Origin: Candidatus Latescibacterota bacterium
Lineage (GTDB): Bacteria; Latescibacterota; UBA2968; UBA8231
Length of the DNA: 64,000 nt
Reading direction: 5' to 3'
NCBI GenBank assembly: GCA_965197905.1
Contig: CBDAOB010000003.1
Location: 1,136,349-1,200,348, forward strand
Shown here: one piece after another, positions 2,548-55,445 of the stretch
How positions within the stretch are numbered: position 1 is the stretch's first letter
Layout: every line of letters begins with the position of its first letter
The notes under the pieces: generated by a model
The model's input: only the letters and a program-made list of their open reading frames with translations
Database searches by the model: none
What the model was told of the DNA's origin: nothing
Program-made: the position numbers and the translations under genes

Positions 2548-3705
2548 ATGCAGGTGAACAACAAACCCTTCTTCCTGATTGGCGCCCGCCACATGCCCGA
2601 CGGGGGGACGCCGGCATTGTTGGCGCAGGCAGGGTTCAACGCCTATCGCCATTTGCCCTGGGGGACGGAGACCAGCGAACCGGAACCGCCGCCGGCGCGG
2701 GACGAGGGCATCCTCTATTGGTCCTACCTTTGGAATCGGACCGCTTTCGAGCTTTCGCCCCACTTCCAAACAGAGCTCACCGAGTATGTTCGACGGGTGA
2801 AGGCCGATCCGGCCCTGTTGTGTTATGAAAACCTGAACGAACCGATCATGCCCGGGCAGCAGAAGGCGACGCCCGAACAGCTGGGCGTCGGGGTGGACCT
2901 CTTGCGGCAGCTGGACCCCGATCACCCCATATGGCTGGCGCACAGCTGCCACAACATGGTGGAGACTTTGGCCACCTACAATCGCTGCGCCGACATCCTG
3001 GGGGCCAATCCGTATCCGGTGGTGCCGACGGGCATGCGTCCGCACCACGTGGCAGCCCGTACCGATGGCCGCATGCTCGACTGTCCGGACCAGACACTCC
3101 ACGGTGCCGGCAAGTACACCCGGAAGATGCTGCAGGTTGGGGGCGGGCGCCTACCGGTCTGGATGTTCGTTCAGGGAATGGCGAACGAGCGCTGGTTCAA
3201 TCCCACGGAGCTGCCGGAGCTGGCCGATCAATCCATCGACGAGTCCAAGATCCTTTATCCCACCTACGAGGAGCTGCGTTTCATGGTCTTCGACGAGATC
3301 ATCTGTGGCGCTACCGGTCTGGCATTTTCCATGTACGGAACTCCGATCCGAAGCCAGATGTGGCGTGACATCGAACGCGTAGTCAGCGAGCTCAACGGCT
3401 TGCACGACGCCCTGGCGGCTCCGCGGGCGTCCGGAAACGTCGACCTGGCCTACACCGACCTGGGGCACACCATATGGGACGGAGTGGGAACGATGGCGAG
3501 GCTCCTAGGCGATGATATCTATCTCTTCGCCGCCAACACCGCCTTCGATCCGGCGCGGGTTTCAATTGGAATCGAAGGGGTCGAAGCCACGGGGGCGGCC
3601 GTTGTCGAGGGAGAGGACCGAGAGCTGCCGGTGACCGGCGGCAGGATCGAGGACGACTTCGAGCCGTACGGTGTCCACGTCTACCGGTTCAAGGGCGAGT
3701 GGTAA
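2548..3705 (+). CDS. Hypothetical glycoside-hydrolase-like TIM-barrel protein
   Basis: MQVNNKPFFLIG start, YENLNEP (clan GH-A-like NEP), DPDHPIW, DILGANPYPV, C-terminal beta-sandwich ending FEPYGVHVYRF. Confidence 0.6.
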   Translation: MQVNNKPFFLIGARHMPDGGTPALLAQAGFNAYRHLPWGTETSEPEPPPARDEGILYWSYLWNRTAFELSPHFQTELTEYVRRVKADPALLCYENLNEPIMPGQQKATPEQLGVGVDLLRQLDPDHPIWLAHSCHNMVETLATYNRCADILGANPYPVVPTGMRPHHVAARTDGRMLDCPDQTLHGAGKYTRKMLQVGGGRLPVWMFVQGMANERWFNPTELPELADQSIDESKILYPTYEELRFMVFDEIICGATGLAFSMYGTPIRSQMWRDIERVVSELNGLHDALAAPRASGNVDLAYTDLGHTIWDGVGTMARLLGDDIYLFAANTAFDPARVSIGIEGVEATGAAVVEGEDRELPVTGGRIEDDFEPYGVHVYRFKGEW

Positions 3706-3843
3706 ACCCCGGGAAGGACCGGCACTTGCGGCACACGACCAGATATCCAGGACGAAGACCATGCCGCCTGAATCACCACCTGAAACGGGTAAAGTAGCGT
3801 TTCCCGCGTCAATTCCACCCTCCGAGTTCCTTCCCATTCTTTC

Positions 3844-3872
3844 TTGACACAGTTTTCTCGTCCAGTTACCGT
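3844..3872 (+). promoter_or_regulatory. Sigma70-type promoter of the mutasome cassette
   Basis: TTGACA (3844-3849), 17-nt spacer, TACCGT (3867-3872), 42 nt before the ATG at 3915. Confidence 0.55.
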
Positions 3873-3914
3873 TCTATCTCGGTATAGTGCACATTTGAGC
3901 AGTATATTTAAGAG

Positions 3915-5063
3915 ATGTCGACCTGGATTGTCTGTTTTCACATCCCGGATCTAGCAGTTCGGACATTGACCGAAAATCCCCAGGAAAAGGTGGTGGTCTC
4001 CTGGGCAGGTCAGGTCTGGTCCTGGAGCGAGACCGTGGAGAAAAGCCGGCTCCGCACCGGTGATTCCCTGCAGCGGGCTCGGGCACTCTGTCCCGACGCG
4101 CTGCTACTGGAACGGGATCTGCATCGCGAGGTCATGATGCGGGAGCGTCTGCTTAATCAACTCTACTCGGCCTCCCCCCGAGTGATGATGCTCCATGAGA
4201 CCTCTCTCCACGGGGCATGGGGGTTGTTGCAGAATCCGCTGGGGGATCGGCTACGGCACCTGACAACGGAATTGCGGGCAAAGGTAGGTGTCGCCCAGCA
4301 TCGATCTTATGCCATGTTGGCCGCGGCCAAAGCGGCCTTCGGTGAGCTTGTAGTAATAAAGCCGGCCGACCTGATGCCGTTTTTGCGGGAAACCTCGGTA
4401 GCGGTGTTGATCCCCTTGGGATACCCCAAGGTGGTTGATGCTCTGTCGCTGTTCGGCCTGCGCTCCCTGCAGCAGGTGTATCAATTGACCCGACGCCATC
4501 TGGAAGCCCAGTTCGAAGAGCAGGGCAGGTCACTCTACGCCTTGCTACATCCCAACGATGAACCTCCCATCCCCGTGTACGAACCGGGTGTAATCCAGAC
4601 CGGGTTCGAGTTAGACGCATCCATTCTCGAAACCCTGGATCTCGCTCCTCAGCTCACTTACCTGGTGGATCAAGCAATCGATCAATTAAAGGGCAAGTGT
4701 GCTCAGTATCTGGAGCTGCAGTTGCAGACGGAAAAGGGCAAGGTGGAAGCCTGCCGGCTGTTGAAAGAGCCCGTATCCGACCAACGCAGCCTCATCCATG
4801 CGGCTCGGTATCTGCTCTCCAATCTATTGCCAAAGGCAGGTGAGGTTTGCGGTCTGGGAGTTTCTCTTGGCGGCCTGGTCGACACCCCGTTCAGGCAGGA
4901 GTCTTTGTTCCCTCAGCGAAAACCGGTTCTGAGCGCTTTGAGAGCGGTAGAACGGCGATTTCCCTCCAAGCTGCTGCGGGGTATCGTGGCGGATCCACAA
5001 CCTATTTTCCACGAAGAGCAAACCAGATTCGAACCCATTTTCCCGGGGAAACCAGCCACCTGA
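3915..5063 (+). CDS. ImuB/ImuY-like Y-family DNA polymerase homologue (probably catalytically inactive)
   Basis: LQRARALCP, KVGVAQHRSYAMLAA, LSLFGLRSL..L.AQF, C-terminal RQESLF beta-clamp motif; no catalytic acidic motifs; upstream of dnaE2. Confidence 0.75.
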   Translation: MSTWIVCFHIPDLAVRTLTENPQEKVVVSWAGQVWSWSETVEKSRLRTGDSLQRARALCPDALLLERDLHREVMMRERLLNQLYSASPRVMMLHETSLHGAWGLLQNPLGDRLRHLTTELRAKVGVAQHRSYAMLAAAKAAFGELVVIKPADLMPFLRETSVAVLIPLGYPKVVDALSLFGLRSLQQVYQLTRRHLEAQFEEQGRSLYALLHPNDEPPIPVYEPGVIQTGFELDASILETLDLAPQLTYLVDQAIDQLKGKCAQYLELQLQTEKGKVEACRLLKEPVSDQRSLIHAARYLLSNLLPKAGEVCGLGVSLGGLVDTPFRQESLFPQRKPVLSALRAVERRFPSKLLRGIVADPQPIFHEEQTRFEPIFPGKPAT

Positions 5064-5305
5064 AGCTCTACGACGAACAGATAGAGGTTGTATCGGGCAG
5101 CGATTCAAAACCGATACGGCTGAGCTGGCGCAAACGATGGTATGAGGTAGCTGCCATCCAGGATGAGTGGAAGGTGCGCGGAAGGCATTGGTACCAAGAA
5201 GAGAGTCGTCGGTATTTCCAGATCCAAACCGCTGACAACCGGATCATGACTGTATGTCAAAAGGAAACGAAGGATGACTGGCTCCTGGTGAGAGTGGTCG
5301 ATTGA
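5060..5305 (+). CDS. Small DUF6504-like protein of the mutasome cassette
   Basis: KLYDEQIEV...PIRLSWRKRWYEVAAIQDEWKVRGRHW...RRYFQI...WLLVRVVD; probable CTG start overlapping the upstream TGA (CTGA). Confidence 0.65.
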   Translation: MKLYDEQIEVVSGSDSKPIRLSWRKRWYEVAAIQDEWKVRGRHWYQEESRRYFQIQTADNRIMTVCQKETKDDWLLVRVVD

Positions 5306-8300
5306 ACTTCGCTCATCTGCACGTACGCTCCTGGTTCTCGTTTTTAGGTGGGGGATCGCCCCCTGAAAAACTGGTCCAGCGTGCTGCGCAACTTGGGTTT
5401 AAAGCCCTTGCTCTTACCGACCGGAACGGAGTCTACGGTGCGGTCCGGTTTCAACAGGCCTGCAGAGATGCCGGCGTTCACGGGGTCATCGGCGCCGAGG
5501 TTACGGTAGAGGACACGGCCCTGGTGCTTCTCTGCATGAGCCGGAAAGGGTATGCCAACCTCAATCGCCTGCTGACCACCGCCCACCTGGCTGATAGGGA
5601 CAGCCCTTCCGCAACCCTGGAGTCGGTGAAGAAGTACCATGAGGAGCTGTACTGTCTTACCAATGGGAGGGATGGAAGACTGTGGGAGCTGGTCTCGCGG
5701 CGCAAAACACGGGAAGCAGATCTGTGGTTGCAGCAGTGGCACTCCATTTTTCGCGAGCGCCTGTACGTGGAGCTGTGTCACGGTCAGCACCAGGGAGACA
5801 GTTTCGTGGTGCAGCGAATCTATCGCCTGGCCAACCGACACGGCATTGCCACTGTCGCTACCAACGACGTGCGTTTTTGCCGCCCGGACGATTACCGGGT
5901 CTACGATCTGTTCACCTGTATTCGGCACAACATCCGCATCTCCGATCCCCATCCTGATCGACCCCACAATGCGGAACAGTATCTGAAAAGCGAGGCTGAG
6001 CTGCGCCGATGGATCCCTTTCCCCGAGGCGTTCGCCAGTGCCGCCGAGATTGCAGCCAACTGTAGCGTCGATCTCCTTCCGGAAGAGATCACCCCGCCCG
6101 CTGCCCATCTCCCAGATGGGATCAGTGGCAAAAAATATCTCACCTCCCTCTGCCGCGAGGCGCTTCCGGTAAAATACCTGGAGCGCAAAAATGAGGCGAT
6201 CGCGCAACTGGAAAAAGAGCTGCAGGTCATCGCCGATCTCGACCTCCAAGAGTTTTTCCTGGTGGTACGCGAGGTGGTTGCGGAAGCAAGGCGCCGGGGA
6301 ATTCGCTGCGCCGGCCGCGGTTCGGCGGCCAACAGCATCGTCGCCTATCTATTGGATATCACCGCAGTGGATCCGATCGAACACAATCTCCTGTTCGAAC
6401 GTTTCCTGCACGGCGGCCGCAAGGGTACCCCCGACATCGACATCGACTTCGACTCCGATCGCCGTGACGAGGTGATCGAGTGGATGGAAGAGCGGTTCGG
6501 GCTGTCGCAAACCGCCATGACCGCAACCTTGGTGACTTACCGCGCCCGTTCCGCTTTGCGGGACGTGGCCAAAACCCTCGGCTGGCCTCTCGCGCTAATA
6601 AACGAGCTTACCAAGCTGGTACCGGGCTTTGGCATAGGAGTCATTCCCGAGTTTACCGAGCAGATCACCGCCCTTTTGGGGGAATCGCCCCTGGTTCATT
6701 ACCTGCTGCATACAGTGCGACAGCTGGAAGGGTGCCCGCGTCATCTCGGGTTGCATTCGGGGGGGATGGTGCTCTCGAGAAAGTGTCTGACCTACTTCAG
6801 CCCAACCCAGGTGAGTGCCAACGGGGTGAAGGTGCTGCAGTTCGACAAGTACGACATCGAAGCGCTGGGGCTGGTCAAACTCGATGTGCTCGGTCTGCGT
6901 ATGCTGGCCACCCTCAGTGAGGCCGAAGAGCTGGTGCGGCGTCACGAAGATCCGCAATTCGACATCGATACGCTGCAGTTGGACGATCCACGGGTATACG
7001 AGCTTATGTGCTCAGGCCGCACCATCGGTCTGTTCCAGATCGAATCCCAGGGCCAGATGCACATGTTGGCGGTCAATCAACCCAGCTGTTTCGACGATGT
7101 GATCGTGGAGGTGGCGATCTTTCGTCCCGGTCCCCTGCAGTCGGGTATGGTCCATCCTTACATCCGGCGGCGCCAGGGGAAGGAGGAAGTGGTGTACGAC
7201 CATCCCATCCTGGAGGAGATCCTCGAAGACACCTACGGCATCATCCTGTTCCAGGAGCAGGTGCTGGAGATAGCGCACCGCTTTGCCCACATGAGTCTCG
7301 AAGAGGCGGACGATTTCCGCGCTTTAATGTCCAAGTTCAGAGACCCGGGAGAGATGGAACGGATGCGGGGCAAATTCGTTGCGGGAGCTATGGGGCGAGG
7401 GGTACCCGAAGAGATTGCTCAAAAGGTGTTTGATCAGGTTTCCCACTTCGTCGGTTACGGATTTTGCCGTTCCCACGCGGCGGCCTTCGCGCGTACGGTG
7501 TATCACTCCGCCTATCTGAAACGATACAACCCGGCTTGTTACATGGCTGCCGTTATGGAGCATCGTCCCGGATTTTACGATCAGGGTACGCTGGAAGAGG
7601 AAGCGAAACGCTTCGGTGTCGACATTCTGCCGCCCGACATCAACTGCTCCCAAATCCGTTTTGATGTGGAGCCGGTAAAGAAGGGGGCTCTGGCGATTCG
7701 CAAACCTTTGACCTCCGTGCGCAACGTATCCGAAGAGGATGCAACGCGTATCGTCTGGGGTCGCCTGGCAGGAGCGTACAAAAGCGTCGAGGATCTGATC
7801 ACCAGAGTTGCCCTCGATCGCGACGTGCTCGAACCTCTCGCCCTTGCCGGCGCTCTGGACAAGCTTGCCACTTCCAGCCGCGATGCTTTATGGCAGATTG
7901 GAGTACTGATGAATCGCATCGACTTGATCCGCGATCACGCTCCAGCCCACTCGCTGTTTACCTTGCCGGTGATCTCCTCGATTGATATTCCAACGCTCCC
8001 CGATCTGACTCAGGTCGAACGAATGACCTGGGATCACCACGCCCATGAAGCAAGCCGGGTACACCCCATGTCGTTGATTCGTCGTACCCTGAAGAGGCTT
8101 GGAGTGATGCCGGTCAGCGGCTGCTTCCGTATCGTTCCCTTAGAGCAAGAAGGCAAAGCAGCGGAGCCGATGGTGACCATCGCCGGCCGCGTCATCCTGC
8201 GCCAGCGTCCCGCCACCGCCAAGGGAGTTATGTTTATAACCCTTGAGGACGAAACCGGGTATATCCAGGGGGTGGCGTTTCAACAGATCCAAGAGCAGTT

Positions 8301-8496
8301 CGGTGAGGTGCTGAGACAACCGGAGCTGATCGTCAGAGGTCGTCTGCAAGCCAGCGGGGGATGGAGGGGGCTGGTCATGCAGGAAGCCTGGCCCATCGAA
8401 GGAATGTTTGGCGGTTATTCCGGTTTTGCCTCGCAGAGTGGGGGAAGAGACCAGGTGGATGAAGCTCCGATCTCGGCACAACGACAGATGCGGTAG
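5302..8496 (+). CDS. dnaE2: Error-prone DNA polymerase III alpha subunit (DnaE2/ImuC)
   Basis: PHP domain HLHVRSWFSF/ALTDRN, GRGSAANS, TPDIDIDFD, YGFCRSHAAAFA, OB fold RQRPATAKGVMFITLEDETG; 1064 aa. Confidence 0.93.
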   Translation: MNFAHLHVRSWFSFLGGGSPPEKLVQRAAQLGFKALALTDRNGVYGAVRFQQACRDAGVHGVIGAEVTVEDTALVLLCMSRKGYANLNRLLTTAHLADRDSPSATLESVKKYHEELYCLTNGRDGRLWELVSRRKTREADLWLQQWHSIFRERLYVELCHGQHQGDSFVVQRIYRLANRHGIATVATNDVRFCRPDDYRVYDLFTCIRHNIRISDPHPDRPHNAEQYLKSEAELRRWIPFPEAFASAAEIAANCSVDLLPEEITPPAAHLPDGISGKKYLTSLCREALPVKYLERKNEAIAQLEKELQVIADLDLQEFFLVVREVVAEARRRGIRCAGRGSAANSIVAYLLDITAVDPIEHNLLFERFLHGGRKGTPDIDIDFDSDRRDEVIEWMEERFGLSQTAMTATLVTYRARSALRDVAKTLGWPLALINELTKLVPGFGIGVIPEFTEQITALLGESPLVHYLLHTVRQLEGCPRHLGLHSGGMVLSRKCLTYFSPTQVSANGVKVLQFDKYDIEALGLVKLDVLGLRMLATLSEAEELVRRHEDPQFDIDTLQLDDPRVYELMCSGRTIGLFQIESQGQMHMLAVNQPSCFDDVIVEVAIFRPGPLQSGMVHPYIRRRQGKEEVVYDHPILEEILEDTYGIILFQEQVLEIAHRFAHMSLEEADDFRALMSKFRDPGEMERMRGKFVAGAMGRGVPEEIAQKVFDQVSHFVGYGFCRSHAAAFARTVYHSAYLKRYNPACYMAAVMEHRPGFYDQGTLEEEAKRFGVDILPPDINCSQIRFDVEPVKKGALAIRKPLTSVRNVSEEDATRIVWGRLAGAYKSVEDLITRVALDRDVLEPLALAGALDKLATSSRDALWQIGVLMNRIDLIRDHAPAHSLFTLPVISSIDIPTLPDLTQVERMTWDHHAHEASRVHPMSLIRRTLKRLGVMPVSGCFRIVPLEQEGKAAEPMVTIAGRVILRQRPATAKGVMFITLEDETGYIQGVAFQQIQEQFGEVLRQPELIVRGRLQASGGWRGLVMQEAWPIEGMFGGYSGFASQSGGRDQVDEAPISAQRQMR

Positions 8497-12747: not shown

Positions 12748-12777
12748 TTGACAGGCATGGGGAGGTATGGCTAATAT
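12748..12777 (+). promoter_or_regulatory. Sigma70-type promoter of the BMC operon
   Basis: TTGACA (12748-12753), 18-nt spacer, TAATAT (12772-12777). Confidence 0.55.
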
Positions 12778-12819: not shown

Positions 12820-13122
12820 ATGCTTCTCGCACAGGTCAAAGGCCACGTTGTATCCAGTGCCAAGATCGACAGTTTGACGGGAAAAAAGCTGTTGCTCGTA
12901 GAGATCGTTACCGTGCGCGACGAGGGTTTGGAGCGCACCGAGCGCCACATGGTTTGCGTCGATGCGGTGGGAGCTGGAGAACGGGAACTGGTGCTGGTCG
13001 TCATGGGAAGCTCAGCTCGCGTCGCCCCCCATCTCGGCGACGTACCCACGGATGCGGTCATCGTCGGCATCATCGATTCGCTCCAGGCGTTCGGTCGCGA
13101 CATGGAGTTGGCGGACGCATGA
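12820..13122 (+). CDS. BMC vertex pentamer protein (EutN/CcmL family)
   Basis: MLLAQVKGHVVSSAK..LTGKKLLLV, VDAVGAGERELVLVVMGSSAR, PTDAVIVGIID. Confidence 0.93.
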   Translation: MLLAQVKGHVVSSAKIDSLTGKKLLLVEIVTVRDEGLERTERHMVCVDAVGAGERELVLVVMGSSARVAPHLGDVPTDAVIVGIIDSLQAFGRDMELADA

Positions 13123-13373
13123 AGCGGTGCCGCGTGATTGGCAACGTGGTTTCCAGTTCTAAACATCCGGCGCTGGCTGGCAAGAAGCTTTTGTTGGTCA
13201 GACATCACGAAGAGACCGGCGATCCTGACCCCGGGATTGGCCTCGCCGTGGATGGTGCTGGTGCCGGGATCGGCGATGATGTGATCGTCAGCGAATCCGG
13301 CGAAGCGGGCCGCGCCGTTACGCGTATCGAATATCCTCCCCTGCGCAGTGTAATCGTCGGCATTGTGGACTGA
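13119..13373 (+). CDS. BMC vertex pentamer protein (EutN/CcmL family)
   Basis: MKRCRVIGNVVSSSKHPALAGKKLLLV, AVDGAGAGIGDDVIV, SVIVGIVD; ATGA overlap with the previous gene. Confidence 0.9.
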   Translation: MKRCRVIGNVVSSSKHPALAGKKLLLVRHHEETGDPDPGIGLAVDGAGAGIGDDVIVSESGEAGRAVTRIEYPPLRSVIVGIVD

Positions 13374-13376
13374 TCA

Positions 13377-13661
13377 ATGAAGCTTAATAGGGTCATTGGC
13401 ACGGTGGTCCTGTCACGGTGCATCGAGCCGTTCAAGGGCAGGACCCTACACGTGACGCAGGATCTGAACGAGAGGCTCGAGCTGGTGGGCGATGCGGATG
13501 TCAGCATGGCCTGGGAACCGGTTCGCGAAGGGGAACTGGCCATTGTCGAGATCGCGCGGGAAAGCGCCAATGCGTTCGATCCCCCCGTGCCCACCGACTC
13601 CGTTATTCTCGGCAGGGTCGACCGGGTTCACATCGATGAGAGATATAGCGGAGGTAAGTAG
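13377..13661 (+). CDS. Divergent BMC vertex pentamer protein (EutN/CcmL family)
   Basis: MKLNRVIGTVVLSR, ARESANAFDPPVPTDSVILGRVD. Confidence 0.8.
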   Translation: MKLNRVIGTVVLSRCIEPFKGRTLHVTQDLNERLELVGDADVSMAWEPVREGELAIVEIARESANAFDPPVPTDSVILGRVDRVHIDERYSGGK

Positions 13662-14219
13662 ATGGCAGACGCAATCGGAATGGTAGAAACGGTCGGGTTC
13701 GTTGGGGCGGTGGAAGCGGGTGACGCGATGAGCAAAGCGGCGCAAGTTACGTTGACCGGATGGGACAAGATTGGGGCGGGTCTGACGTCGGTGTTCTGCG
13801 AAGGTGACGTGGCGGCGGTCAAATCGGCGGTCGATGCGGGGGCGCAGGCGGCGGCAAAGGTGGGAACGGTGCACAGCGCTCACGTGATTCCGCGGCCGCA
13901 CTCCGAGTTGGAGTCGGTCTTGCCTTCAGCGTCCAAGGGAAACGGGGTGGTGGTTCAGGCGCTGGGGCTGGTGGAGACGCGGGGCTCGACCGGCGTGATC
14001 GAGGCGGCGGACGCCATGAGCAAAGCGGCAGATGTAGAGGTGGTGAAGATCGCCGAGATTGGCGGCGGTTATATCACGGTGTTGGTGACCGGGGATGTGG
14101 GATCGGTAAAATCGGCGGTGAGTGCTGGATCGGAAGCAGCGGAACGTGTCGGCGAGCTGGTCTCTCAACACGTTATCCCGCGCCCGTCGGACGAGGTCGC
14201 CTCGTTGTATCTAAGTTGA
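13662..14219 (+). CDS. BMC shell protein with two tandem BMC (PF00936-type) domains
   Basis: AIGMVETVG..DAMSKAA..GDVAAVKSAV..HVIPRPH followed by ALGLVETRG..DAMSKAA..HVIPRPS. Confidence 0.92.
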   Translation: MADAIGMVETVGFVGAVEAGDAMSKAAQVTLTGWDKIGAGLTSVFCEGDVAAVKSAVDAGAQAAAKVGTVHSAHVIPRPHSELESVLPSASKGNGVVVQALGLVETRGSTGVIEAADAMSKAADVEVVKIAEIGGGYITVLVTGDVGSVKSAVSAGSEAAERVGELVSQHVIPRPSDEVASLYLS

Positions 14220-14233
14220 AAGGGAAGGATTAG

Positions 14234-14497
14234 ATGAAGGCACTAGGTATGGTGGAGACCAAGGGTCTTGCGTGTATGGTAGAGGCGCTGGATGCGATGT
14301 TGAAGACCGCTGATGTCAAATACGTAGCTCAAAAACGAGTAGGAGCGGGTCTTGTGATGGTGATGGTGGAAGGCGATGTGGCGGCGGTGAAGGCAGCCGT
14401 GGATGCGGGCGCGCAAGCGGCGCAGCGAATCGGCGAACTGCGTAGCGTGCACGTCATTCCACGGCCGATCGAAGGACTCCGGGCGCAGCTGAATTGA
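14234..14497 (+). CDS. BMC hexamer shell protein (EutM/PduA-like)
   Basis: [32 protein letters not shown]; 87 aa. Confidence 0.95.
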
Positions 14498-14526
14498 TGT
14501 GCACGCCCTGCTGAGAGTGCACTAGC

Positions 14527-15954
14527 GTGACCCAGAAGGTGAACGAAGACCAGGTCAGGGAGATCGTCGCCGAGGTCGTCAGCCGGGTGCTTGCGGCGCA
14601 CAGCACTGAACCTGACTCGGGGTTATCGTCCCAGGTGGGCGGCGTTTTCGGGGACGCGGATGCGGCAGTGGCTGCTGCCCGCCGGGCTCAGGGGCAGTTG
14701 CTGTCGATGACGCTGGTAGACCGGAAGCGGATCATCGAAGCCATTCGCGATACTCTGCACTCAGAGGCGGAGAGTTTCGCTCGGCGCACCCTCGAAGAGA
14801 CCGGCATGGGCCGGCTCGAGGACAAGATCCGCAAACACCATGTGGCCGCAGATACGACGCCCGGGGTCGAAGACCTGCATGCTGTTTCGTGGACCGGGGA
14901 TCACGGCCTCACGGTGGTGGAGATGGCGCCGTATGGCGTAATCGCGGCGATAACGCCATCCACCCATCCGGTGCCCACCATGGCAAGCAATGCCATCGGC
15001 ATTGTCGCGGCGGGCAACGCGGCGGTTTTCAATGCTCACCCTGCCGCCAAAAAGATCTCCGCTGCCGCAGTCCAACAGCTAAACACCGCCATCGTAGAAG
15101 CGGGCGGCCCTGCCAACCTGATTACCATCATCGAACATCCAACCGTCGAGAGTGCTACTGAACTGTTCAACCACGCCGGCGTCGACGTCATACTGGTAAC
15201 CGGCGGTCCCGCCGTCGCTCGAGCGGCCATGAGCTGTCCCAAGAAGGCGATCGTAGCGGGGCCCGGCAACCCACCTGTTGTCGTCGACGAAACGGCAGAC
15301 CTGGAACGGGCGGCCCGGGACATCGTCGACGGCGCATCCTTCGACAACAATCTGCTCTGCATCGGCGAGAAGCAGGTGTTCGTCGTGGATTCGGTGGCTG
15401 ACAGCCTGAAATCGCTCATGGTGCGGTACAGCGCTTACGAGCTCAACCCGGAGCAGATCGAACAACTCGTGCGGGAGGCGTTCGTCAGCGAGGGGAGCGG
15501 CGAACCCCGCGTGAATCGCGAGCTGGTGGGGCGCGACGCCGCGGTGCTGGGTGCCCGCATCGGTTTGCAGCTGGAAGACTCGCTGCGACTATTGATCGGC
15601 GAAACCGATGCCGGCCACATCTTCGTGCGGGAAGAGCAGATGATGCCGTTCGTGCCGATCGTCCGGGTGCCCAACGTAGATCAGGGGATTCGCGCCGCGG
15701 TCGAATCGGAGCATGGCTACCGACACACGGCGGTCATTCACTCGCGCAACATCGAGAACATGCACAACATGGCCCGCGCCGCGGATACGACGGTGTTCGT
15801 CAAGAACGGCCCTTCTTACGCGGGATTGGGCATCGGTGGCGAAGGGTTCGGCACCTACTCCATCGCCGGTCCCACCGGAGAAGGGCTGACGTCGGCGAGC
15901 ACCTTTACGCGCCAACGACGCTGCAGCCTCGTAGACTATTTCCGCATCACCTGA
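14527..15954 (+). CDS. CoA-acylating aldehyde dehydrogenase (EutE/PduP family) with N-terminal encapsulation peptide
   Basis: ETGMGRLEDK, TGGPAV, AGPGNPP, SFDNNLLCIGEK, EQMMP, PTGEGLTSA..FTRQRRC; N-terminal helix EDQVREIVAEVVSRVL. Confidence 0.92.
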   Translation: MTQKVNEDQVREIVAEVVSRVLAAHSTEPDSGLSSQVGGVFGDADAAVAAARRAQGQLLSMTLVDRKRIIEAIRDTLHSEAESFARRTLEETGMGRLEDKIRKHHVAADTTPGVEDLHAVSWTGDHGLTVVEMAPYGVIAAITPSTHPVPTMASNAIGIVAAGNAAVFNAHPAAKKISAAAVQQLNTAIVEAGGPANLITIIEHPTVESATELFNHAGVDVILVTGGPAVARAAMSCPKKAIVAGPGNPPVVVDETADLERAARDIVDGASFDNNLLCIGEKQVFVVDSVADSLKSLMVRYSAYELNPEQIEQLVREAFVSEGSGEPRVNRELVGRDAAVLGARIGLQLEDSLRLLIGETDAGHIFVREEQMMPFVPIVRVPNVDQGIRAAVESEHGYRHTAVIHSRNIENMHNMARAADTTVFVKNGPSYAGLGIGGEGFGTYSIAGPTGEGLTSASTFTRQRRCSLVDYFRIT

Positions 15955-15962
15955 ACGGTCCC

Positions 15963-16673
15963 ATGTCCCAATCGAACCGGCAACCGCTCTCCGTGGATCG
16001 CGGCACCATTGAAACCATGGTTCGCGAGATCCTGGGGCGCTACTCGCCCGCCGAGGGTATGGACAAATCTGTAGCCGCCAGGATTCCGCGCCTGGTGGCG
16101 AACATCTCGGCTCGCCATCTCCACCTGAACCGCCAAACACTCGAAACCCTGTTCGGCTCAGGTGCTGAGCTGACGGTGCAGAAAGAGCTATACCAGGAAG
16201 GTGCGTTCGCCGCGGAACAGATGGTCACCGTATTCGGACCGCGGCAGCAGATGATCGCCAACGTTCGCGTTCTGGGTCCGCTGCGCGATTACAACCAGGT
16301 GGAGCTTTCCTTCAGTGATGCGCGTTTCCTGGGCATCGATGCACCCGTTCGCCTGAGTGGCGATCACACCGACACCCCCGGGTGTTACCTGGTAGGTCCC
16401 GCCGGCGGTCTCGAACTGAAAGCGGGAGTGATACGGGCGGCCAGGCACGTCCACATGAGTTCCGACGAAGGCGATTTCTACGGGGTAAAGGCGGGCGACC
16501 TGATGCGGCTCGTGGTAGACAGCGAACAAGGGGGAACACTGAGCGGACTGATCTGCCGGGTCAGTGACCGCGAGAAGCTCGAGGTGCATCTGGACACCGA
16601 CGAAGGCAACGCCGTCGATCTGGCGCGGGCCCGCAAGGTTCACCTGGAGAAAGAAACCGCTGATTCCACATGA
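15963..16673 (+). CDS. pduL: Phosphate propanoyltransferase / phosphotransacylase with N-terminal encapsulation peptide
   Basis: ISARHLHL, VRVLGPLR, PVRLSGD, ARHVHM, EVHLDTDEGNA; N-terminal DRGTIETMVREILGRY. Confidence 0.92.
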   Translation: MSQSNRQPLSVDRGTIETMVREILGRYSPAEGMDKSVAARIPRLVANISARHLHLNRQTLETLFGSGAELTVQKELYQEGAFAAEQMVTVFGPRQQMIANVRVLGPLRDYNQVELSFSDARFLGIDAPVRLSGDHTDTPGCYLVGPAGGLELKAGVIRAARHVHMSSDEGDFYGVKAGDLMRLVVDSEQGGTLSGLICRVSDREKLEVHLDTDEGNAVDLARARKVHLEKETADST

Positions 16674-17152
16674 GCTCCGTACTCCACATACAGGAGATGG
16701 TTGTCACCGGGGACGATCTTGCCCGGGCGCACCAGGGCCAGGAAGTGCTGTGTGTCGTTGCCGCGGCGGTGCTTACGCCGACGGCCTGGGATTACATTCG
16801 CGACCAGCGTTTGCGGCTGACTCGAGGGGAAAGCGCGTCCGTGTCCGAGTCTGTGGCACCGTCGGCGTCGACCAACCTGGTCAACGAGGCGCAGATGGTG
16901 CCCCATGCGCAGTGCGACCAACCGGGAAGTTCCTGCGGATGCACAACCGAGGAGTTTGGCTCCGGTTTTGTTCAACCCGAAAGTTGTGGGGTGTGTGCCA
17001 TACATCAGCTCAAGGTCGCCGGCCAGGCGAACCCCGGATGCGAGGGCTGTAATCTGAACGGGCGCTGCGACGGCGAATCAGGGTCCGCCGCCGCGACGGA
17101 GTCACTCGTGGCACAGATCACCGAGCAGATTGTGGAGCAGCTACGCCGATGA
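16670..17152 (+). CDS. Hypothetical Cys-rich BMC-associated protein with C-terminal encapsulation-peptide-like helix
   Basis: N-terminal VVTGDDL...AVLTPTAWDY domain; CxxxxxxCxC, CxxC, CxxC, C cluster; C-terminal ESLVAQITEQIVEQLRR. Confidence 0.7.
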   Translation: MSSVLHIQEMVVTGDDLARAHQGQEVLCVVAAAVLTPTAWDYIRDQRLRLTRGESASVSESVAPSASTNLVNEAQMVPHAQCDQPGSSCGCTTEEFGSGFVQPESCGVCAIHQLKVAGQANPGCEGCNLNGRCDGESGSAAATESLVAQITEQIVEQLRR

Positions 17153-17712
17153 GCGGCGCGCTAGGTATCATCGAGGCAGAGGGGGTCGCCGGCATCATCG
17201 CCGCCTCGGACGTTGTCGGCAAAACCGCCGACGTCGAGCTGCTTGGCTGGGAGTCGATCGGCGGAATCACCTCCATCTTTTTCCGCGGGACCGTCGCGGA
17301 GGTGGCCGCCTCACTTGAAAGCGGCCGCGAGGCCGCCGCGGCGCTCGCGGACAAGGTTGTGGCGGCCCCGTTGTATCAGCCCGAAGCGGTCTGCAGCGAT
17401 TTCATTGGGCATCCGATGCCGGACGAGATCGAGGTTCCGGATGGCGCACTGGGCTTGCTCGAGTCTCGCGGCTACGGTGCTCACGTGCTGGCTAACGACC
17501 GCATGGTGAAGGCGGCTCCGGTCCGGGTCTACAATCTTCTGGCAGTGCACGATCGCGTCGTTTGCACCCTGATCAACGGCGAGGAGGGTGCGGTTCGAGA
17601 GGCGATTGCCAGCGGCCGCGAACTGTTCGCTCGCGACGTGCGCTTCCGCTGTTCCACCGTTATCTCGCGCCCGTTACCGCACGTGCTGCGGGCGTTCGCG
17701 CCGGGCTGTTAG
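17149..17712 (+). CDS. Divergent BMC shell protein with two tandem BMC domains
   Basis: ALGIIEAEG..DVVGKTADV and ALGLLESRG..DRMVKAAPV..GAVREAI..VISRP. Confidence 0.85.
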   Translation: MSGALGIIEAEGVAGIIAASDVVGKTADVELLGWESIGGITSIFFRGTVAEVAASLESGREAAAALADKVVAAPLYQPEAVCSDFIGHPMPDEIEVPDGALGLLESRGYGAHVLANDRMVKAAPVRVYNLLAVHDRVVCTLINGEEGAVREAIASGRELFARDVRFRCSTVISRPLPHVLRAFAPGC

Positions 17713-17874
17713 TGCCCTGTATCGATAATATGCCTGTATTAATTCGCCGACTCATCCCGACCTGCTTCGTTACGCTCACTCGGCGTATTTCACCAATACG
17801 CCTCGATCGCGCGCCTTGCAGGACGGGCGACTCGGCGCCTTCATTGCACAGGCCTACTTCCGATACAGGGCACT
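17711..17874. mobile_element. MITE-like element with 14-bp perfect terminal inverted repeats
   Basis: AGTGCCCTGTATCG (17711-17724) / CGATACAGGGCACT (17861-17874); internal hairpin GGCGTATT-TCACC-AATACGCC (17782-17802); no ORF. Confidence 0.7.
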
Positions 17875-17887
17875 GAGGAGGCTGCAG

Positions 17888-19045
17888 GTGGCGCAACCAA
17901 GCGCATTCGGGGTGTTGGAGACCCGAGGAGTAACGGCTCAAGTGGCTGCGACCGACGCCATGGTCAAAACTGCTGATGTTCGGGTGTGCGGACGCCAGGC
18001 GATCGGCTCGGGATGGGTAACGGTGGTAGTGGAGGGTGAGGTCGGGGCCGTGCAAGCCGCGGTGGCAAGCGGCGAGCGCGAAGCCGGCAAGTACGGCGAG
18101 CTGATCGGCGCGGACGTCCTGACCGCGCCGGACATGGCGGCCGCCGACATCATGCCACATGCCAGTGGGCTGAGCCCTGCTACCCTCAAACCCCAGCAAG
18201 CTCTCGGCGTCCTCGAGACTCGGGGTTTTGCCCAGCTGGTCGTTGGGGGTGACGCCGCGACCAAGGCGGCGGCGGTAAGTGTCTGCGGCTGGGCTTCTGC
18301 CGGCGGTGCACTGTGCCATCTGGTGGTTCAGGGCGAAGTGGCCAGCGTGTACACTGCCCTGCGCGAAGGTCGCATCGCAGCCGAGACCGCCGGCGAGGTG
18401 TATGCGGCCCTGGTTATTCCACAGCCAGCGGTGGACGTGGCCGGCGTGTTGCCCGTGCCCGCAGGCGCTCAGCCAGCAGAGGTCGGTGCCCTCGGAATAC
18501 TGGAGACCACCGGATATACCGGTTCGGTGGCGGCTGCGGACGCGATGGCCAAAACGGCTGAGATCGGAGTGGCGCGTTTCAATATTGGAAGTGGTGGACG
18601 CACCGCTGTTATGACCACGGGAAAACTGGACGATGTCCAGGCCGGCATCGAGCCCGGTGTTGCCGCGGCCAAACTGGCTGGTGGATTCGAGAACGCCCGT
18701 GTCGTCACCCGGCCCGACCCGGATATCGTGGCCTGTTTCGCGCAGGCAACAACCAGTGCCGCACCGAAGGGGCTGGCCCTCGGATTAATCGAAACCCGCA
18801 GCACCGTGGCTCTGGTGAAGGCGATGGACGAGATGCTCAAAGGGGCCGACGTGGAGTACGAAGGCCGGGTGAAGGTGGGGTTCTATCTCACCGCCGGTGC
18901 GATTCGCGGTGACGTGGGCGCCGTCAGAGTGGCATTGGATCTGGGTGCGAAAGAGGCTCGTCGCCATGGGGAACTGGTCGCAACGCACTTGATACCGCAA
19001 CCCGACCGGGGTATGGAGCCACCGCTACCACATCGAGGAACGTAA
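17888..19045 (+). CDS. BMC shell protein with four tandem BMC domains
   Basis: Four units starting AFGVLETRG, ALGVLETRG, ALGILETTG and ALGLIETRS, each with D-x3-K and a terminal P-x-P-like motif; GTG at 17888 follows GAGGAG. Confidence 0.88.
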   Translation: MAQPSAFGVLETRGVTAQVAATDAMVKTADVRVCGRQAIGSGWVTVVVEGEVGAVQAAVASGEREAGKYGELIGADVLTAPDMAAADIMPHASGLSPATLKPQQALGVLETRGFAQLVVGGDAATKAAAVSVCGWASAGGALCHLVVQGEVASVYTALREGRIAAETAGEVYAALVIPQPAVDVAGVLPVPAGAQPAEVGALGILETTGYTGSVAAADAMAKTAEIGVARFNIGSGGRTAVMTTGKLDDVQAGIEPGVAAAKLAGGFENARVVTRPDPDIVACFAQATTSAAPKGLALGLIETRSTVALVKAMDEMLKGADVEYEGRVKVGFYLTAGAIRGDVGAVRVALDLGAKEARRHGELVATHLIPQPDRGMEPPLPHRGT

Positions 19046-19065
19046 TCACCAGGAAGAGAACAAAC

Positions 19066-20226
19066 ATGGTACGCATCGCAGCTAGAGTGATCACGGGTCC
19101 GATGCTGGAGGAACAGCTCGCTGGCTCCGGCTCTGTGCAGATCGACAGGGGAGCGGTACTGACGCCCTCGGCGTTGGACTACCTAAAGGCTCACGAGGTC
19201 TCGGTGGTGCGCGACGGAGATGTGCCGCCTGCTGCCGCGAAGGGGGAGAAGCAAAACAGCCCCGTCGCGGGAGCGAAGCGGTTTCAAGGAATTTTTGTGC
19301 CCAACGTCGTCATCTTCGACGCTGACGGAAACATCAACTTCGGCGAAATGGAGCGTTACATCGCCTGGTTGATCGACGCTGGCATTCACGGACTCTACCC
19401 CAACGGAAGCACCGGCGAATTCGTGCGGCTTTCCGCCGAGGAGCGGCGGGAGGTGGTGCGCATCATCGCAAATGTAAACCAGGGGCGAGTTCCGATTCTG
19501 GCCGGTGCCAGCGAAGCGAATGTGCGCGACGTGCTGGATACGGCGGAGTATTACGCGCGTTTGGATGTGGATGCCATCTCCCTGGTGCCTCCGTACTACT
19601 ACAAGATCTCCGAACGCAGCCTGTTCGAGTATTTCGCCGAGATCGCCCGCAACTCGCCCCTCGATATCTTGCTCTACAACATTCCCCAGTTCACCCAGGA
19701 GCTCACCCTGGATATCATGGAGGAGCTGCTCCCGTTCGAGCGCATCTTCGGCACCAAGGACTCGAGCCGAGACCTGCCACGGATCGTAAATACAATCCAC
19801 CGGTTGCGCCCCCAGCGTCCCGACTACGTGGTGCTCAACGGCTGTGAGGAGATCCTGCTGCCTGCTATCATCATGGGCGCAGACGGCGGCACCATCGCCA
19901 CCGCTGGCATCATACCCGAGGTAATCGCCGAGTTGTACCGGTGCTCTCTCGAGGGAGAAATCGAGCGCGCCCGCATGCTGCAGTATCGCATCATCGACCT
20001 CATAAACCTGATGCTGTTGGGTGCCAGTTTCCCCCAGGGGTTCAAGACAGGTGTGGCGGTGCGCGGGTTTGACGTAGGTCCACCCCGCCAGGTCATGAGC
20101 ACCCAGGAGCGCGAAGTCCTGTCGCAACTGGAGGCGCAGATTACCTGTCTGCTGGACGACATGGGATACGAGGTGGACGGAGCAAGCAGCTGCCCCGTGA
20201 CCAATACACCCCCCATTGTCAACTAG
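19066..20226 (+). CDS. DapA/NAL-family class I aldolase with an extra N-terminal BMC-associated domain
   Basis: NGSTGEF, PPYYY, LYNIP, Schiff-base KDSS; N-terminal ~50 aa VITGPMLEE...AVLTPSALDYLK. Confidence 0.88.
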   Translation: MVRIAARVITGPMLEEQLAGSGSVQIDRGAVLTPSALDYLKAHEVSVVRDGDVPPAAAKGEKQNSPVAGAKRFQGIFVPNVVIFDADGNINFGEMERYIAWLIDAGIHGLYPNGSTGEFVRLSAEERREVVRIIANVNQGRVPILAGASEANVRDVLDTAEYYARLDVDAISLVPPYYYKISERSLFEYFAEIARNSPLDILLYNIPQFTQELTLDIMEELLPFERIFGTKDSSRDLPRIVNTIHRLRPQRPDYVVLNGCEEILLPAIIMGADGGTIATAGIIPEVIAELYRCSLEGEIERARMLQYRIIDLINLMLLGASFPQGFKTGVAVRGFDVGPPRQVMSTQEREVLSQLEAQITCLLDDMGYEVDGASSCPVTNTPPIVN

Positions 20227-20232
20227 AGGACC

Positions 20233-21327
20233 GTGACGGGGCTCCGCAGCGGACCGAAGGTCGCGGTCATTGGCGCCGGAGTCATCGGCCGTTTCATAGC
20301 CTACCAGCTTACCGCACGGGGAATCCCCGTCGACCTTCTCGACCCCGGTCCCGATCCCTCATCCACTACCGCCGCCTCTCTTGGGGTGTTGACCCACTTC
20401 AACGGGGGCGACGATCCATATTCGCTGCTCTACCGGGACAGCTACCACAGTTATTGCGAGCTGGCGGTCCAACTGGAGCACCAGACGGGCATCGATATCG
20501 GCTGGCGCCCGCTGGGGGGAATCGATCTGATATTCGACGAGGACGATGAGGCCGCGGCTGCCGCAACAGTCGCGTTCAATCGCTCGCGACACTGCGTCGT
20601 CGAACAGCTGGACCGTGACCGCGTACACGAACTGGAACCGGCCATATCCGAGAAGGTCCAGGGAGGATTGTATTTCCCCGACGACCAGCGCGTCGACCCG
20701 GCGAAGCTGGCCGCCGCGCTTATCAAGGCCATCGAACAGCAGGGTGGGGTCGCCCACTTCGGGGTCCGGGTGCTCGGTTTCGGCGACGTGACACGGCAGG
20801 GAGTTTCCCTGCAGACGACTTCGAGCACATTCGAGGCTGATGTGGTAGTGCTGGCAGCAGGTTGCTGGACCGGCGAGCTCGGCCGCATGCTCGGCGCCCA
20901 CATCCCCGTTCGACCGATCAGGGGGCAGCATTGCCGTTTTTCAGGGGCCGCCGTCGAGCACGTGGTGCGCTACGACGGTCGGCACCTCCTCGCCTCCGAT
21001 GAGTTCACGGTCGTGGGGGCAACCGTGGAGGACGTCGGTTTCGACGTGGAGGTATCGGCGTTGGCGCGTCAGGAGCTGTCCACTTTCGTGGGGGCAACCG
21101 TCAAACCCCATATGAGTTTTCACCAGCAGCGCGCGGGGCTGCGGCCCAAACCCAAGGGGGGTCGTCCCCTGATCGGACCACTGGAGGAATACCCGCAGGT
21201 ATTCGTCGCAACGGGTCACTATAAGAACGGAATTCAGCTGGGGCCGGGGACGGGGGAGGCGGTGGCACGATGGATCGTTGATGGGGACCCTGGCCGGCAG
21301 ATGGGGCGGTTCAAGCCGGAAAGGTAG
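20233..21327 (+). CDS. FAD-dependent oxidoreductase, glycine oxidase (ThiO)/D-amino acid oxidase family
   Basis: VIGAGVIG, AASLGVL, VVLAAGCW, RPIRGQ, AGLRP, ATGHYKNGI. Confidence 0.85.
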   Translation: MTGLRSGPKVAVIGAGVIGRFIAYQLTARGIPVDLLDPGPDPSSTTAASLGVLTHFNGGDDPYSLLYRDSYHSYCELAVQLEHQTGIDIGWRPLGGIDLIFDEDDEAAAAATVAFNRSRHCVVEQLDRDRVHELEPAISEKVQGGLYFPDDQRVDPAKLAAALIKAIEQQGGVAHFGVRVLGFGDVTRQGVSLQTTSSTFEADVVVLAAGCWTGELGRMLGAHIPVRPIRGQHCRFSGAAVEHVVRYDGRHLLASDEFTVVGATVEDVGFDVEVSALARQELSTFVGATVKPHMSFHQQRAGLRPKPKGGRPLIGPLEEYPQVFVATGHYKNGIQLGPGTGEAVARWIVDGDPGRQMGRFKPER

Positions 21328-33429: not shown

Positions 33430-36400
33430 ATGTCCGTAACTGGTAGCTCGAAGATTCGCAACGCCAGCTTGCCCGCCCGGGTTGCTGTCGGAGCCGTTTC
33501 TCTCGCGCTTCTGTTGTGTGCTGTCTCACCACTGTCAGCACAGACTTGCCAGGTGAAAAGCGTCCAGAAGATCGCCGACAACACCGGCGGTTTTGGCGTT
33601 ACCCTCACGAACAGTGACAATTTCGGGGTCTCCGTTGTCGCCATCGGCGATCTGGATAACGACGGCGTCGAAGACCTTGCCGTGGGGGCGCACAACGACG
33701 ACACCGGTGGCGCCGGTCGGGGCGCACTGTATGTGCTGTTGATGAACAGCAACGGCACGGTAAAGAGCCACCAGAAGATCGCCGACAACACCGGCGGCTT
33801 CGGCGTCACTCTCACCAACAGCGATTTCTTCGGTGTCTCGGTAGCTGCATTGGGGGACCTGGACGACGATGGGGTGAAGGACCTGGCTGTGGGTGCGTTC
33901 TTCGATGACACCGGCGGCACCGGTCGTGGCGCCGTCTACGTACTGTTCATGAACACAAACGGCACGGTAAAGAGCCACCAGAAGATCGCCGACAACACCG
34001 GGGGATTCGGCGTGACACTCACAGACAGCGACGCTTTCGGGGCAGCTGTTGTGGGTCTCGGGGATCTGGACAACGACGGGGTAGAAGATCTGGCCATAGG
34101 AGCAAAAAGTGACGACACCGGAGGCACTGATCGCGGCGCGGTCTACGTTCTGTTCATGAACACCAATGGCACGGTCAAGAGCTCGCAGAAGATTGCCGAC
34201 AATACTGGTGGGTTCGGGGTAACCCTTGCAGACAGTGACTTCTTCGGCGGCAGGCTGGCCGCCCTGGGCGATTTCGATGGGGACGGGATCGAAGACCTGG
34301 CGTCGGGCGCACAGAACGACGATACAGGTGGCACCGACCGCGGTGCGTTCTATGTGCTGCTGTTGAACAGCGACGGTACGGTGAAGAGCCACCAGAAGAT
34401 TGCTGACAATACAGGAGGTTTCAACGTTACGCTCACCGACAGTGACGTCTTCGGAGGATCTTCGGTAACGAACCTGGGCGACCTTGATGGAGACGGAGTG
34501 GCGGATCTCGCCGCCGGGGCAATGCTCGACGACACCGGCGGTACCGACAGGGGCGCGCTGTATCTGCTGTTGATGAACAGCAACAGCACCGTCAAGAGCA
34601 ACTTCAAGATCGCCGACAATACCGGGGGCTTTGACTTCGCTCTGACGAATACGGCTCGTTTCGGAATCGCGGCGGTGGGCTTGGGGGATCTCGACGGTGA
34701 CGGTGTCGGAGACCTGGCGATAGGAGCCGACAAGGACGATACCGGCGGCACCGATCGCGGTGCTCTATGGGTGGTGTTCCTGACCAAGGTACCCACCATC
34801 ACTGCCATCAGTCCGAAGACAGGCAAGGTAGGTGATTCGGTAACCATCACCGGCACCGAGTTCGATGCCACCGCAGCGAACAACAAAGTGTTCTTCGGGG
34901 CGACGAAAGCGACGGTGACGGCGGCGTCGCTTTCGTCGCTGACCGTCACCGTGCCGACGGGTGCGACATTCGGCCCCTTGCAGGTGATCGTGCACAACCG
35001 CACCGCAGAGTCGGACGATTTCTTTCAACCCACCTTCTCCGGCGAGTTCCCTACCATAGACGCTTCGACTCTGGCGGCCAAGGTAGACTTTGCCACCGGC
35101 ACCGATCCGGTCAGCGTCCACCTGGCTGATTTCGATGGCGACGGCAAGGTAGACATGGCGGTGTCCAACTCGACAACCAACAACGTTTCAGTCTTTGAGA
35201 ACACCAGCTCCGGTTCCATTACCTTCGCCGCCAAGGCCGATTTTGCCGCGGGCACGAGTCCTTGGGGTATGGACGTAGGCGACCTGGATGGAGACGGGCT
35301 TCTGGATATGGCCGCGCCCAACAACACGACCAACAACGTCTCGGTCTTTCGCAACACCAGCTCCGGATCCATATCGTTCGCGGCGAAGGTGGATTTCGCG
35401 TCGGGCACGGTTCCCAACGACCTCGCCTTCGCCGACTTCGACGGCGACGGAAAACTGGACATGGTGACAGCGAACAACACCGCTACCACCGCCTCCGTTT
35501 TCCGAAATACAAGCACCTCGGGTAGCATCACCGCTGCCTCCTTCAGCGCCAAAGTCGATTTCACGACGGGAACGACGCCATCTGCGGTCGAAGTGGCAGA
35601 CATAGACGGAGATGGGGAAACGGATTTCGTGGTCACCAACTTTGCCACCGACAACGTCTCCGTGTTCCGAAACACCAGCACAGCTGGGACGATCGATGCC
35701 GCTTCATTCGCTGCCAAGGTGGATTTTGCTTCGGGCACAGGTCCACGCTTCTTGGCCTTGGGGGACGTGGATGGCAATGGCAAACCAGAGATGGTGGTCG
35801 CCAACGAAACCGCAAACACCATCTCGATCTTTCGCAATACTGCAGTTTCCGGCATGATCACCGGGGGATCGTTTGCCGCCAAAGTCGACTACACCGTTCA
35901 AACCGACCCTTACAACATAGCTTTCGGAGACCTCGATGGAGACAACAAGCCCGATATTGCCGTTTCTCATCGAACCACCGCAGCCTTCTCCCTCTTTCGC
36001 AACAAGAGCGTTTCAGGAACCATCGACGCCAATTCGCTCGACACCAGAGTGGATTTTACCACGGCCAACGACTTGAGGGGTGTAGCGATCGGCGACCTCG
36101 ACGGAGATCAAAAACCCGATGTGGTGGTGACCGATTTTACCGCGAACAACCTGTCGGTATTTCGCAATCTGACTCCAACGACGCTGGCGCCGACGATCAC
36201 GTCCGTTTCGCCGCTGCTCGGAAAGATCGGTGATACGATAACGATCACCGGCACGAACTTCGACGCTACGACAACCAACAACACCGTCTACATCGGCGGC
36301 ATCAAGGCGACAGTGGTTACCGCTTCGGCCACGACGTTGACAGTTACGATGCCGGCGGGTGCGACGGTCGGGCCAGTGCGGGTCACGGTAAAAGAGCGGA

Positions 36401-55219: not shown

Positions 55220-55445
55220 GTTGGAGAAAACAACAACACATCTACGGTGTTGTCAAACGCTCCAACAGTTGGAATGAAGGGTGCAATTTCTACTCAAATG
55301 TTGATCCGCATCACAATTCTTGGTCGTTTTTTGGTTATTGTATAACAACCAGTCGGGCTGGATCGGCCGAAGAGCAAAAGGACCGTAGTATTTGCCTGTG
55401 AACGAGATTCGGATACCCAGAGCTGTGCTCAATTCCCCGTATACG

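Follow-up and report, generated by a model that had tools for sequence, protein, structure and literature searches.

PVM-type organelles are known as the means by which planctomycetes break down fucose and rhamnose derived from polysaccharides of algae and plants. Among described bacterial microcompartments (BMCs), the PVM metabolosome, whose hosts are given as Planctomycetes or Verrucomicrobia, carries its signature enzyme, a class II aldolase, in the main locus, and the available parts of its descriptions name no class I aldolase with an encapsulation peptide (EP) (PMC8217296, PMC4594438). The MUF2 type has already been catalogued, and its gene set includes a nearby PF00701 aldolase and a six-Cys protein (Sutter 2021, PMC8217296, supplement file 4). 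In the part of that supplement available, the satellite pfam00596 aldolase is the PVM-like enzyme and the PF00701 protein is assigned no role. An encapsulated class I aldolase as aldehyde source has a precedent in the SPU metabolosome, whose enzyme is of the DeoC type (PF01791). We analysed a window (the whole stretch of 64,000 nucleotides from a Candidatus Latescibacterota bacterium) in which a DapA-family protein is encoded within a microcompartment operon. The best explanation, with a probability of roughly 0.6, is that the operon is a MUF2 main locus without class II aldolase, and that the DapA-family protein serves it as an accessory aldolase of the Schiff-base type, targeted to the shell. 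The observations behind it are gene content, catalytic residues, linkage, targeting-type sequences and co-occurrence.

All 12 genes of the operon were confirmed on the + strand, from 12820 to 21327, by profile searches of the window proteins. The gene set is the one that a first-pass annotation of the letters had listed, with three pentamers, four BMC-domain genes, an aldehyde dehydrogenase (AldDH), PduL, a Cys-rich protein, the DapA-family protein and an oxidase.

12748..12777, + strand: sigma-70-like promoter candidate, 10/12 consensus positions, from a consensus scan only, with 5 sites observed versus 2.0 expected in shuffles
12820..13122, + strand: BMC-P pentamer 1, PF03319, 87.8 bits
13119..13373, + strand: BMC-P pentamer 2, PF03319, 75.7 bits
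13377..13661, + strand: BMC-P pentamer 3, divergent, PF03319, 34.4 bits
13662..14219, + strand: two-domain linear BMC-H fusion (T1), two PF00936 domains
14234..14497, + strand: single-domain BMC-H, PF00936, 94.5 bits
14527..15954, + strand: CoA-acylating AldDH with N-terminal EP-like helix, NF011927, 645 bits (cut-off 403)
15963..16673, + strand: PduL-type phosphotransacylase, PF06130 216 bits, NF011652 219 (cut-off 209), His motifs present
16670..17152, + strand: MUF2 Cys-rich protein, with shared N-terminal domain, six-Cys middle and C-terminal EP-like helix, no Pfam match
17149..17712, + strand: two-domain BMC fusion (T2), two PF00936 domains
17710..17874, no strand assigned: insertion of ~165 bp with terminal inverted repeats, resembling a miniature inverted-repeat transposable element (MITE), at the T2 stop codon
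17888..19045, + strand: four-domain linear BMC-H fusion (Q4), four PF00936 domains
19066..20226, + strand: DapA/NAL-superfamily class I aldolase with ~50-residue N-terminal BMC-cargo domain, PF00701 at residues 73-360, 196 bits
20233..21327, + strand: glycine-oxidase-like FAD enzyme, PF01266, 6 bp 3' of the aldolase

Apart from this operon, no multi-gene BMC locus was found in the genome (6.69 Mb in five contigs, 91% complete). The shell set consists of three BMC-P genes and four BMC-domain genes; one of the latter has a single domain, two are two-domain linear fusions and one is a four-domain linear fusion, the two-domain pair having been overlooked in the first-pass annotation. Like MUF2, the locus has AldDH and a phosphotransacylase in the main locus, a BMC-P triplet of three PF03319 genes, double and quadruple linear BMC-H fusions, and a six-Cys protein that shares its N-terminal domain with the nearby PF00701 aldolase; at C4:115707-116183 there is a single satellite BMC-H, extended at its C terminus. 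The locus departs from MUF2 in that no satellite PF00596 aldolase bearing a C-terminal EP turned up in the genome, only one single-domain BMC-H is present versus at least two, and the fourth pentamer is absent. The locus is a variant of the MUF2 main locus and no new BMC type; the distinct type first proposed for it gives way to a catalogued gene set, an outcome which that proposal had itself named as telling against it. Because a defining feature of MUF2, the class II aldolase, is missing, the locus is filed as MUF2-derived, short of a full member.

The pentamer triplet, the PduL, the AldDH (47% identical to one planctomycete BMC AldDH) and the aldehyde-to-acyl-phosphate logic are shared with the PVM metabolosome as described in the parts of PMC8217296 and PMC4594438 available; unlike PVM, the operon has no PF00596 gene, and the closest relatives are labelled Latescibacterota. 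The class I aldolase of SPU belongs to a different Pfam family and acts on a sugar phosphate, and neither a PF01791 nor an RpiB gene occurs in the window operon. As had been read from the sequence, none of EutBC, a dehydratase, a glycyl-radical enzyme, class II aldolase, acetate kinase, alcohol dehydrogenase or a regulator is among the 12 scanned proteins. The literature searched, mostly non-subscription and available in part, gave no further account of MUF2 or of a microcompartment DapA-family or EP-bearing class I aldolase; in a SAR202 paper, a link between a microcompartment and non-phosphorylative fucose use appears as a reference title only.

The DapA-family protein carries the GxxG motif, the Ser/Thr-Tyr-Tyr triad and the Schiff-base Lys by which the superfamily of dihydrodipicolinate synthase (DHDPS) and NAL is recognised. 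GSTGE, Tyr178, Tyr204 and Lys231 are present, in agreement with the intact motifs first reported, and they are conserved in 44 aligned homologues, T116 being Ser in one. YagE is the top PDB match, both by sequence and by fold, and its residues Ser56, Tyr119, Tyr145, Lys174 and Ala221, as named in the available text of PMC9795676, align to S115, Y178, Y204, K231 and A278, all five invariant in the 44 homologues. The enzyme resembles E. coli YagE/YjhH in this catalytic set, including the Ala at the 221 position, and differs in the aldehyde-side loop (GYDD versus GCEE) and in having a targeting extension, which YagE/YjhH lack. C260, C361 and C376 are also invariant in the 44 rows, and the C-terminal Cys pair is kept in 103/120 planctomycete-type orthologues. 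Judging from these residues, the chemistry is likely to be aldol cleavage of a 2-keto acid.

Of the 57 loci returned by our searches, 53 were close (at least 52%) and were counted, and 4 distant ones were set aside. A shell gene is next to the aldolase in 51/53, the other two ending at a contig edge, so the tie to BMC genes on which the first-pass annotation depended extends to the relatives; the enzyme also carries targeting signals. Fourteen of the 53 are stand-alone T2-Q4-aldolase cassettes; the two cassette genomes that were examined carry their main BMC locus, which includes class II aldolase and acetate kinase, at a separate site. Q4 is present in all 14 aldolase-positive relatives. In the predicted model, the N-terminal domain (N-domain) of the aldolase is a separately folded unit of 50 residues, followed by a disordered linker (52-70). 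It matches the BMC family TIGR02536 in 14/19 rows and occurs in only two proteins of the genome, the aldolase and the Cys-rich protein, both encoded in the operon, a sharing that had been missed before. The wider N-domain family contains proteins that begin with an EP-like stretch and end in a weakly RpiB-like part, one of them encoded within a BMC locus of a planctomycete (E 8e-11). Against the PDB, the N-domain profile gave no significant match.

Targeting-type sequences are not confined to the aldolase. In AldDH, the helix pattern covers residues 10-21, and a Cys lies inside the motif NLLCIGEK. The N-terminal helix of PduL and the tail of the Cys-rich protein are EP-like by eye, although both fail the strict EP pattern. 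In the Cys-rich protein, C91, C106, C109, C124 and C127 are invariant and C82 nearly so (16 aligned rows), and its Atlas leads were all below 0.9, one being a EutQ cluster at 0.77. The idea that this protein provides an EP in trans does not hold generally, as it is absent from 2/2 cassette-type genomes searched.

A sister group at about 52% identity, mostly with Planctomycetota labels, forms one clade with the Latescibacterota enzyme (ultrafast bootstrap, UFBoot, 100). The N-domain is found in 0/120 of its members, versus 119/120 of the N-domain group, and an EP-like C-terminal helix is found in 108/120, versus 0.8 in shuffles and 0/120 of the N-domain group. The tail is present in all 20 genomic and metagenomic planctomycete-type copies read. 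On metagenome contigs a BMC-H gene lies 3' of the planctomycete form in 8/10, both misses being at contig ends, and in genomes no shell gene lies within 1.5 kb of it in 9/10. In an even draw of 151 Planctomycetota genomes the planctomycete form was present in 10, all of them belonging to the 13 whose PVM-type AldDH matches at E<1e-150 (15 genomes at 1e-100), and in none of the other 138; a PVM-like shell locus was confirmed in one of the 10. Taken at the level of sequence, the aldolase clade looks like one targeted to microcompartments in two ways, by the N-domain in Latescibacterota and by the EP-like tail in Planctomycetota, and from sequence, linkage and co-occurrence we infer that the aldolase is encapsulated.

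What is new here is a lineage without the class II aldolase, and a DapA-family clade that is BMC-targeted across two phyla with interchangeable addressing. A broader view, which we offer tentatively and consider somewhat less probable than its contrary, is that the clade is an overlooked and often unlinked cargo of PVM and MUF2 organelles, serving as a non-phosphorylative feed. It would be addressed either by an EP or by a small folded domain, the latter shared with eut_hyp, EutT-like and planctomycete accessory proteins; in Latescibacterota it would accompany the T2 and Q4 pair, which may form a dedicated six-domain tile, and in this genome the aldolase would be the sole entry enzyme. If so, a second, unlinked aldolase in most of the PVM-AldDH-positive genomes sampled would be an entry missed by locus-based catalogues, and the swap of peptide for folded domain on one clade would offer a handle on a second cargo-addressing device. 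The locus type itself is no news; a genome in which this aldolase is the only linked one isolates its role.

The distribution of both aldolases was followed in 41 relatives, several of which are fragmented bins. The counts are 35 for AldDH, 33 for the class II aldolase, 20 for Q4 and 14 for the class I aldolase; both aldolases occur together in 11, class I alone in 3 and class II alone in 22. The class I aldolase looks accessory rather than a signature enzyme, because it is found in 14/41 genomes versus 33/41 for class II and is cleanly absent from five operons. The first-pass annotation had taken it for the apparent signature enzyme, which stands in so far as it is the only organelle-linked aldolase found in this genome and does not carry over to the relatives.

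Of the five genomes examined first, four have the MUF2 class II aldolase and its C-terminal helix; the search of the 41 relatives failed to find it here, in both congeners, one of them the single-contig G007, and in five others. None of the three PF00596 genes of the genome is orthologous to it (best 34%), and none is near a shell gene. In three relatives the class II aldolase sits between two marker genes, and on C5 of this genome the same two markers flank instead a 566-aa gene, presumably a TrkA-domain channel; a sensitive search of this syntenic slot found no aldolase remnant. The absence is therefore unlikely to be an assembly gap.

In the pathway that we envisage, a 2-keto-3-deoxy (4-hydroxy-2-oxo) acid made in the cytosol would enter the shell and be cleaved by the aldolase to pyruvate and a short aldehyde. 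AldDH would convert the aldehyde to acyl-CoA and NADH, PduL would turn the acyl-CoA into acyl-phosphate with recycling of CoA, and an acetate kinase encoded outside the operon would yield the acid and ATP. The acetate kinase homologue on contig C4 could complete the pathway; no route of NADH recycling was identified. Most relatives would have this entry in addition to the one through the class II sugar-phosphate aldolase; here it would be the only linked entry found.

The direction of the reaction and its substrate are what we infer. The single likeliest substrate would be 2-keto-3-deoxy-L-fuconate (L-KDF) or 2-keto-3-deoxy-L-rhamnonate (L-KDR), giving lactaldehyde, an assignment that is plausible and, on its own, less likely than not. 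Cleavage of KDF to pyruvate and lactaldehyde is an established reaction (PMC11199699); the reaction proposed here is that of the FucH route, for which the available text describes no encapsulation. Lactaldehyde is favoured by the tie to genomes with PVM-type AldDH, by one planctomycete copy that lies 3' of a RhaT-family symporter, and by rhamnose isomerase, present in 7/14 aldolase-positive versus 1/27 other relatives. Neither fucose isomerase nor rhamnose isomerase was found in this genome, and therefore only a non-phosphorylative route would be left for these sugars.

Several observations weigh against this reading, in part through the substrate. A rhamnonate-dehydratase-like gene is present in 36/41 relatives regardless of the aldolase, scores under its family cut-off in this genome (322 of 393 bits) and was found in 0/10 aldolase-positive Planctomycetota, which counts against KDR. 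A fuconate-dehydratase motif matched none of the open reading frames (ORFs) of the genome, which has 41 enolase-superfamily ORFs as possible suppliers of other keto-deoxy acids. The operon itself has no sugar dehydrogenase, lactonase, dehydratase, transporter or regulator. Identity to YagE and to NanA is 30% each, and in a 37-sequence tree the clade stands apart from both, so homology leaves the substrate unfixed. Moreover, 4/41 relatives have AldDH with neither aldolase, in the five operons without the aldolase Q4 is followed directly by the oxidase, and clean absences fall at three places on a T2 and Q4 tree of 54 loci. Kin genomes are not independent, so the co-occurrence counts overstate.

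The methylpentose link is weak for MUF2 overall, with a strong fucose isomerase match in 4/41 relatives and rhamnose isomerase in 8/41; only 9/33 class II-bearing genomes carry one or the other. In three relatives (L068-L070), two ORFs that we take to be a phosphoribosyl pyrophosphate (PRPP) synthetase and an adenine phosphoribosyltransferase stand within a few genes of the MUF2 class II aldolase. The MUF2 substrate might alternatively be a sugar phosphate of nucleoside origin. In one MUF2 locus (L021:1063-2939, + strand), the operon has a further two-domain shell gene as well as one for a PduS-like Fe-S flavoprotein.

An organelle in decay would also account for the missing class II enzyme: a cytosolic bifunctional aldolase/short-chain dehydrogenase would have taken over the class II step in this clade, leaving the class I aldolase as a leftover. 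The bifunctional gene (NF006196, above cut-off) is present in 5/41 genomes, one copy being:

G000 C5:208875-210857 (L003): bifunctional aldolase/short-chain dehydrogenase, NF006196

All five genomes are among the eight without BMC class II aldolase and none among the 33 with it, three of the five have no class I gene either, two of these three keeping only one pentamer at the locus, and a mobile repeat sits inside the window operon. We consider decay unlikely, given that the 12 frames are all open and 87-99% identical to those of the congener L004, with catalytic residues intact; moreover, the five genomes make up two genera, which may be sisters (support 0.6), so perhaps a single event is being counted, and as none of the five yielded a rhamnose or fucose isomerase, the role of the bifunctional enzyme is itself unclear. 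Aldolases of the DapA/YagE kind are reversible, and the enzyme might instead condense excess aldehyde with pyruvate inside the shell, the resulting 2-keto-3-deoxy acid acting as a buffer or overflow. Such a role would fit its occurrence mostly alongside the class II aldolase (11/14), and also the failure to find the best-matching upstream dehydratase in the 10 positive planctomycetes. In three genomes, this one included, no other linked aldolase was found, and it is hard to see which aldehyde would need trapping there. Moreover, a supply of keto-deoxy acid is possible in view of a UxaA/GarD-type dehydratase family in 5/5 positive genomes tested (without negative control); on both counts we consider condensation quite improbable, and cleavage by an accessory, shell-targeted enzyme remains the preferred reading.

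The FAD enzyme could change the picture if it produced the substrate, oxidising an amino acid to a 2-oxo or imino acid on which the DapA-family protein would act as the following lyase or deaminase, an order resembling hydroxyproline breakdown. The oxidase does lie 3' of the aldolase in 37/53 loci, with a gap of 6 bp here. It occurs, however, in 23/41 relatives, all of one family, and in three of them at the same site without a BMC operon; neither the 14 stand-alone cassettes nor the planctomycete loci read contain it, and it has no terminal extension. To the ThiO model TIGR02352 it scores 197 bits, below the cut-off of 251, and another gene of the genome scores 215. The scheme is in our view very unlikely and the oxidase is judged a bystander, whereas the first-pass annotation had counted it as a member of the locus. 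An FAH hydrolase (20/53 loci) and a second, divergent DapA-like gene (32/53) were considered as pathway partners and rejected, both staying with the oxidase in 3/3 operon-less genomes checked. Since all three keep the same site without the operon, they are neighbours and no parts of it. The divergent family was not found in this genome; an example elsewhere is:

L019:12346-13287, + strand: divergent DapA-like gene without the GxxGE motif, 3' of the oxidase, no NCBIfam match

That the aldolase itself is a true DHDPS, or another cytosolic enzyme merely placed beside shell genes, might be suggested by the DHDPS labels that some homologues bear in databases. This we regard as hardly credible: the protein scores 151 bits against a cut-off of 206 for TIGR00674, has Phe209 in the column of Arg138, and coexists with a separate dapA (231 bits) beside dapB on C5, and its clade bears two independent targeting-type extensions. 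By its sequence it is not a DHDPS, a point on which the first-pass annotation had been right.

In the shell, T2 is immediately 5' of Q4 in 48/50 Q4-bearing loci, the other two ending at a contig edge, and their domains sum to six, which suggests, on domain counts, one heteromeric six-domain tile. A complex prediction with Q4, T2 and the aldolase N-domain, run without controls, scored 0.00 and counts neither way. The start of Q4 was placed after the insertion, rather than at 17816, from the starts of its homologues. The mobile repeat at 17710-17874, also overlooked before, is not in the 95%-identical relative L004 and folds into a long hairpin; it has 16 blastn matches genome-wide, 11 of them of at least 120 bp (about ten near-full copies). 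Placed between two shell genes, it could affect expression of Q4 and the aldolase. The closest relative found, with 95% identity in the aldolase, is also Candidatus Latescibacterota.

Elsewhere in the window, all on the + strand, a DNA polymerase III alpha-family gene, presumably of the error-prone DnaE2 type, lies at 5302-8496 and is preceded by two unassigned ORFs at 2548-5063, and a group II intron-type reverse transcriptase/maturase is encoded at 51328-52653. The stretch 33430-48622 holds a 4476-aa FG-GAP/TIG/fibronectin-III (FN3) repeat protein followed by an FN3 ORF, and a second, similar repeat gene at 55392-63144 is split over three consecutive ORFs.

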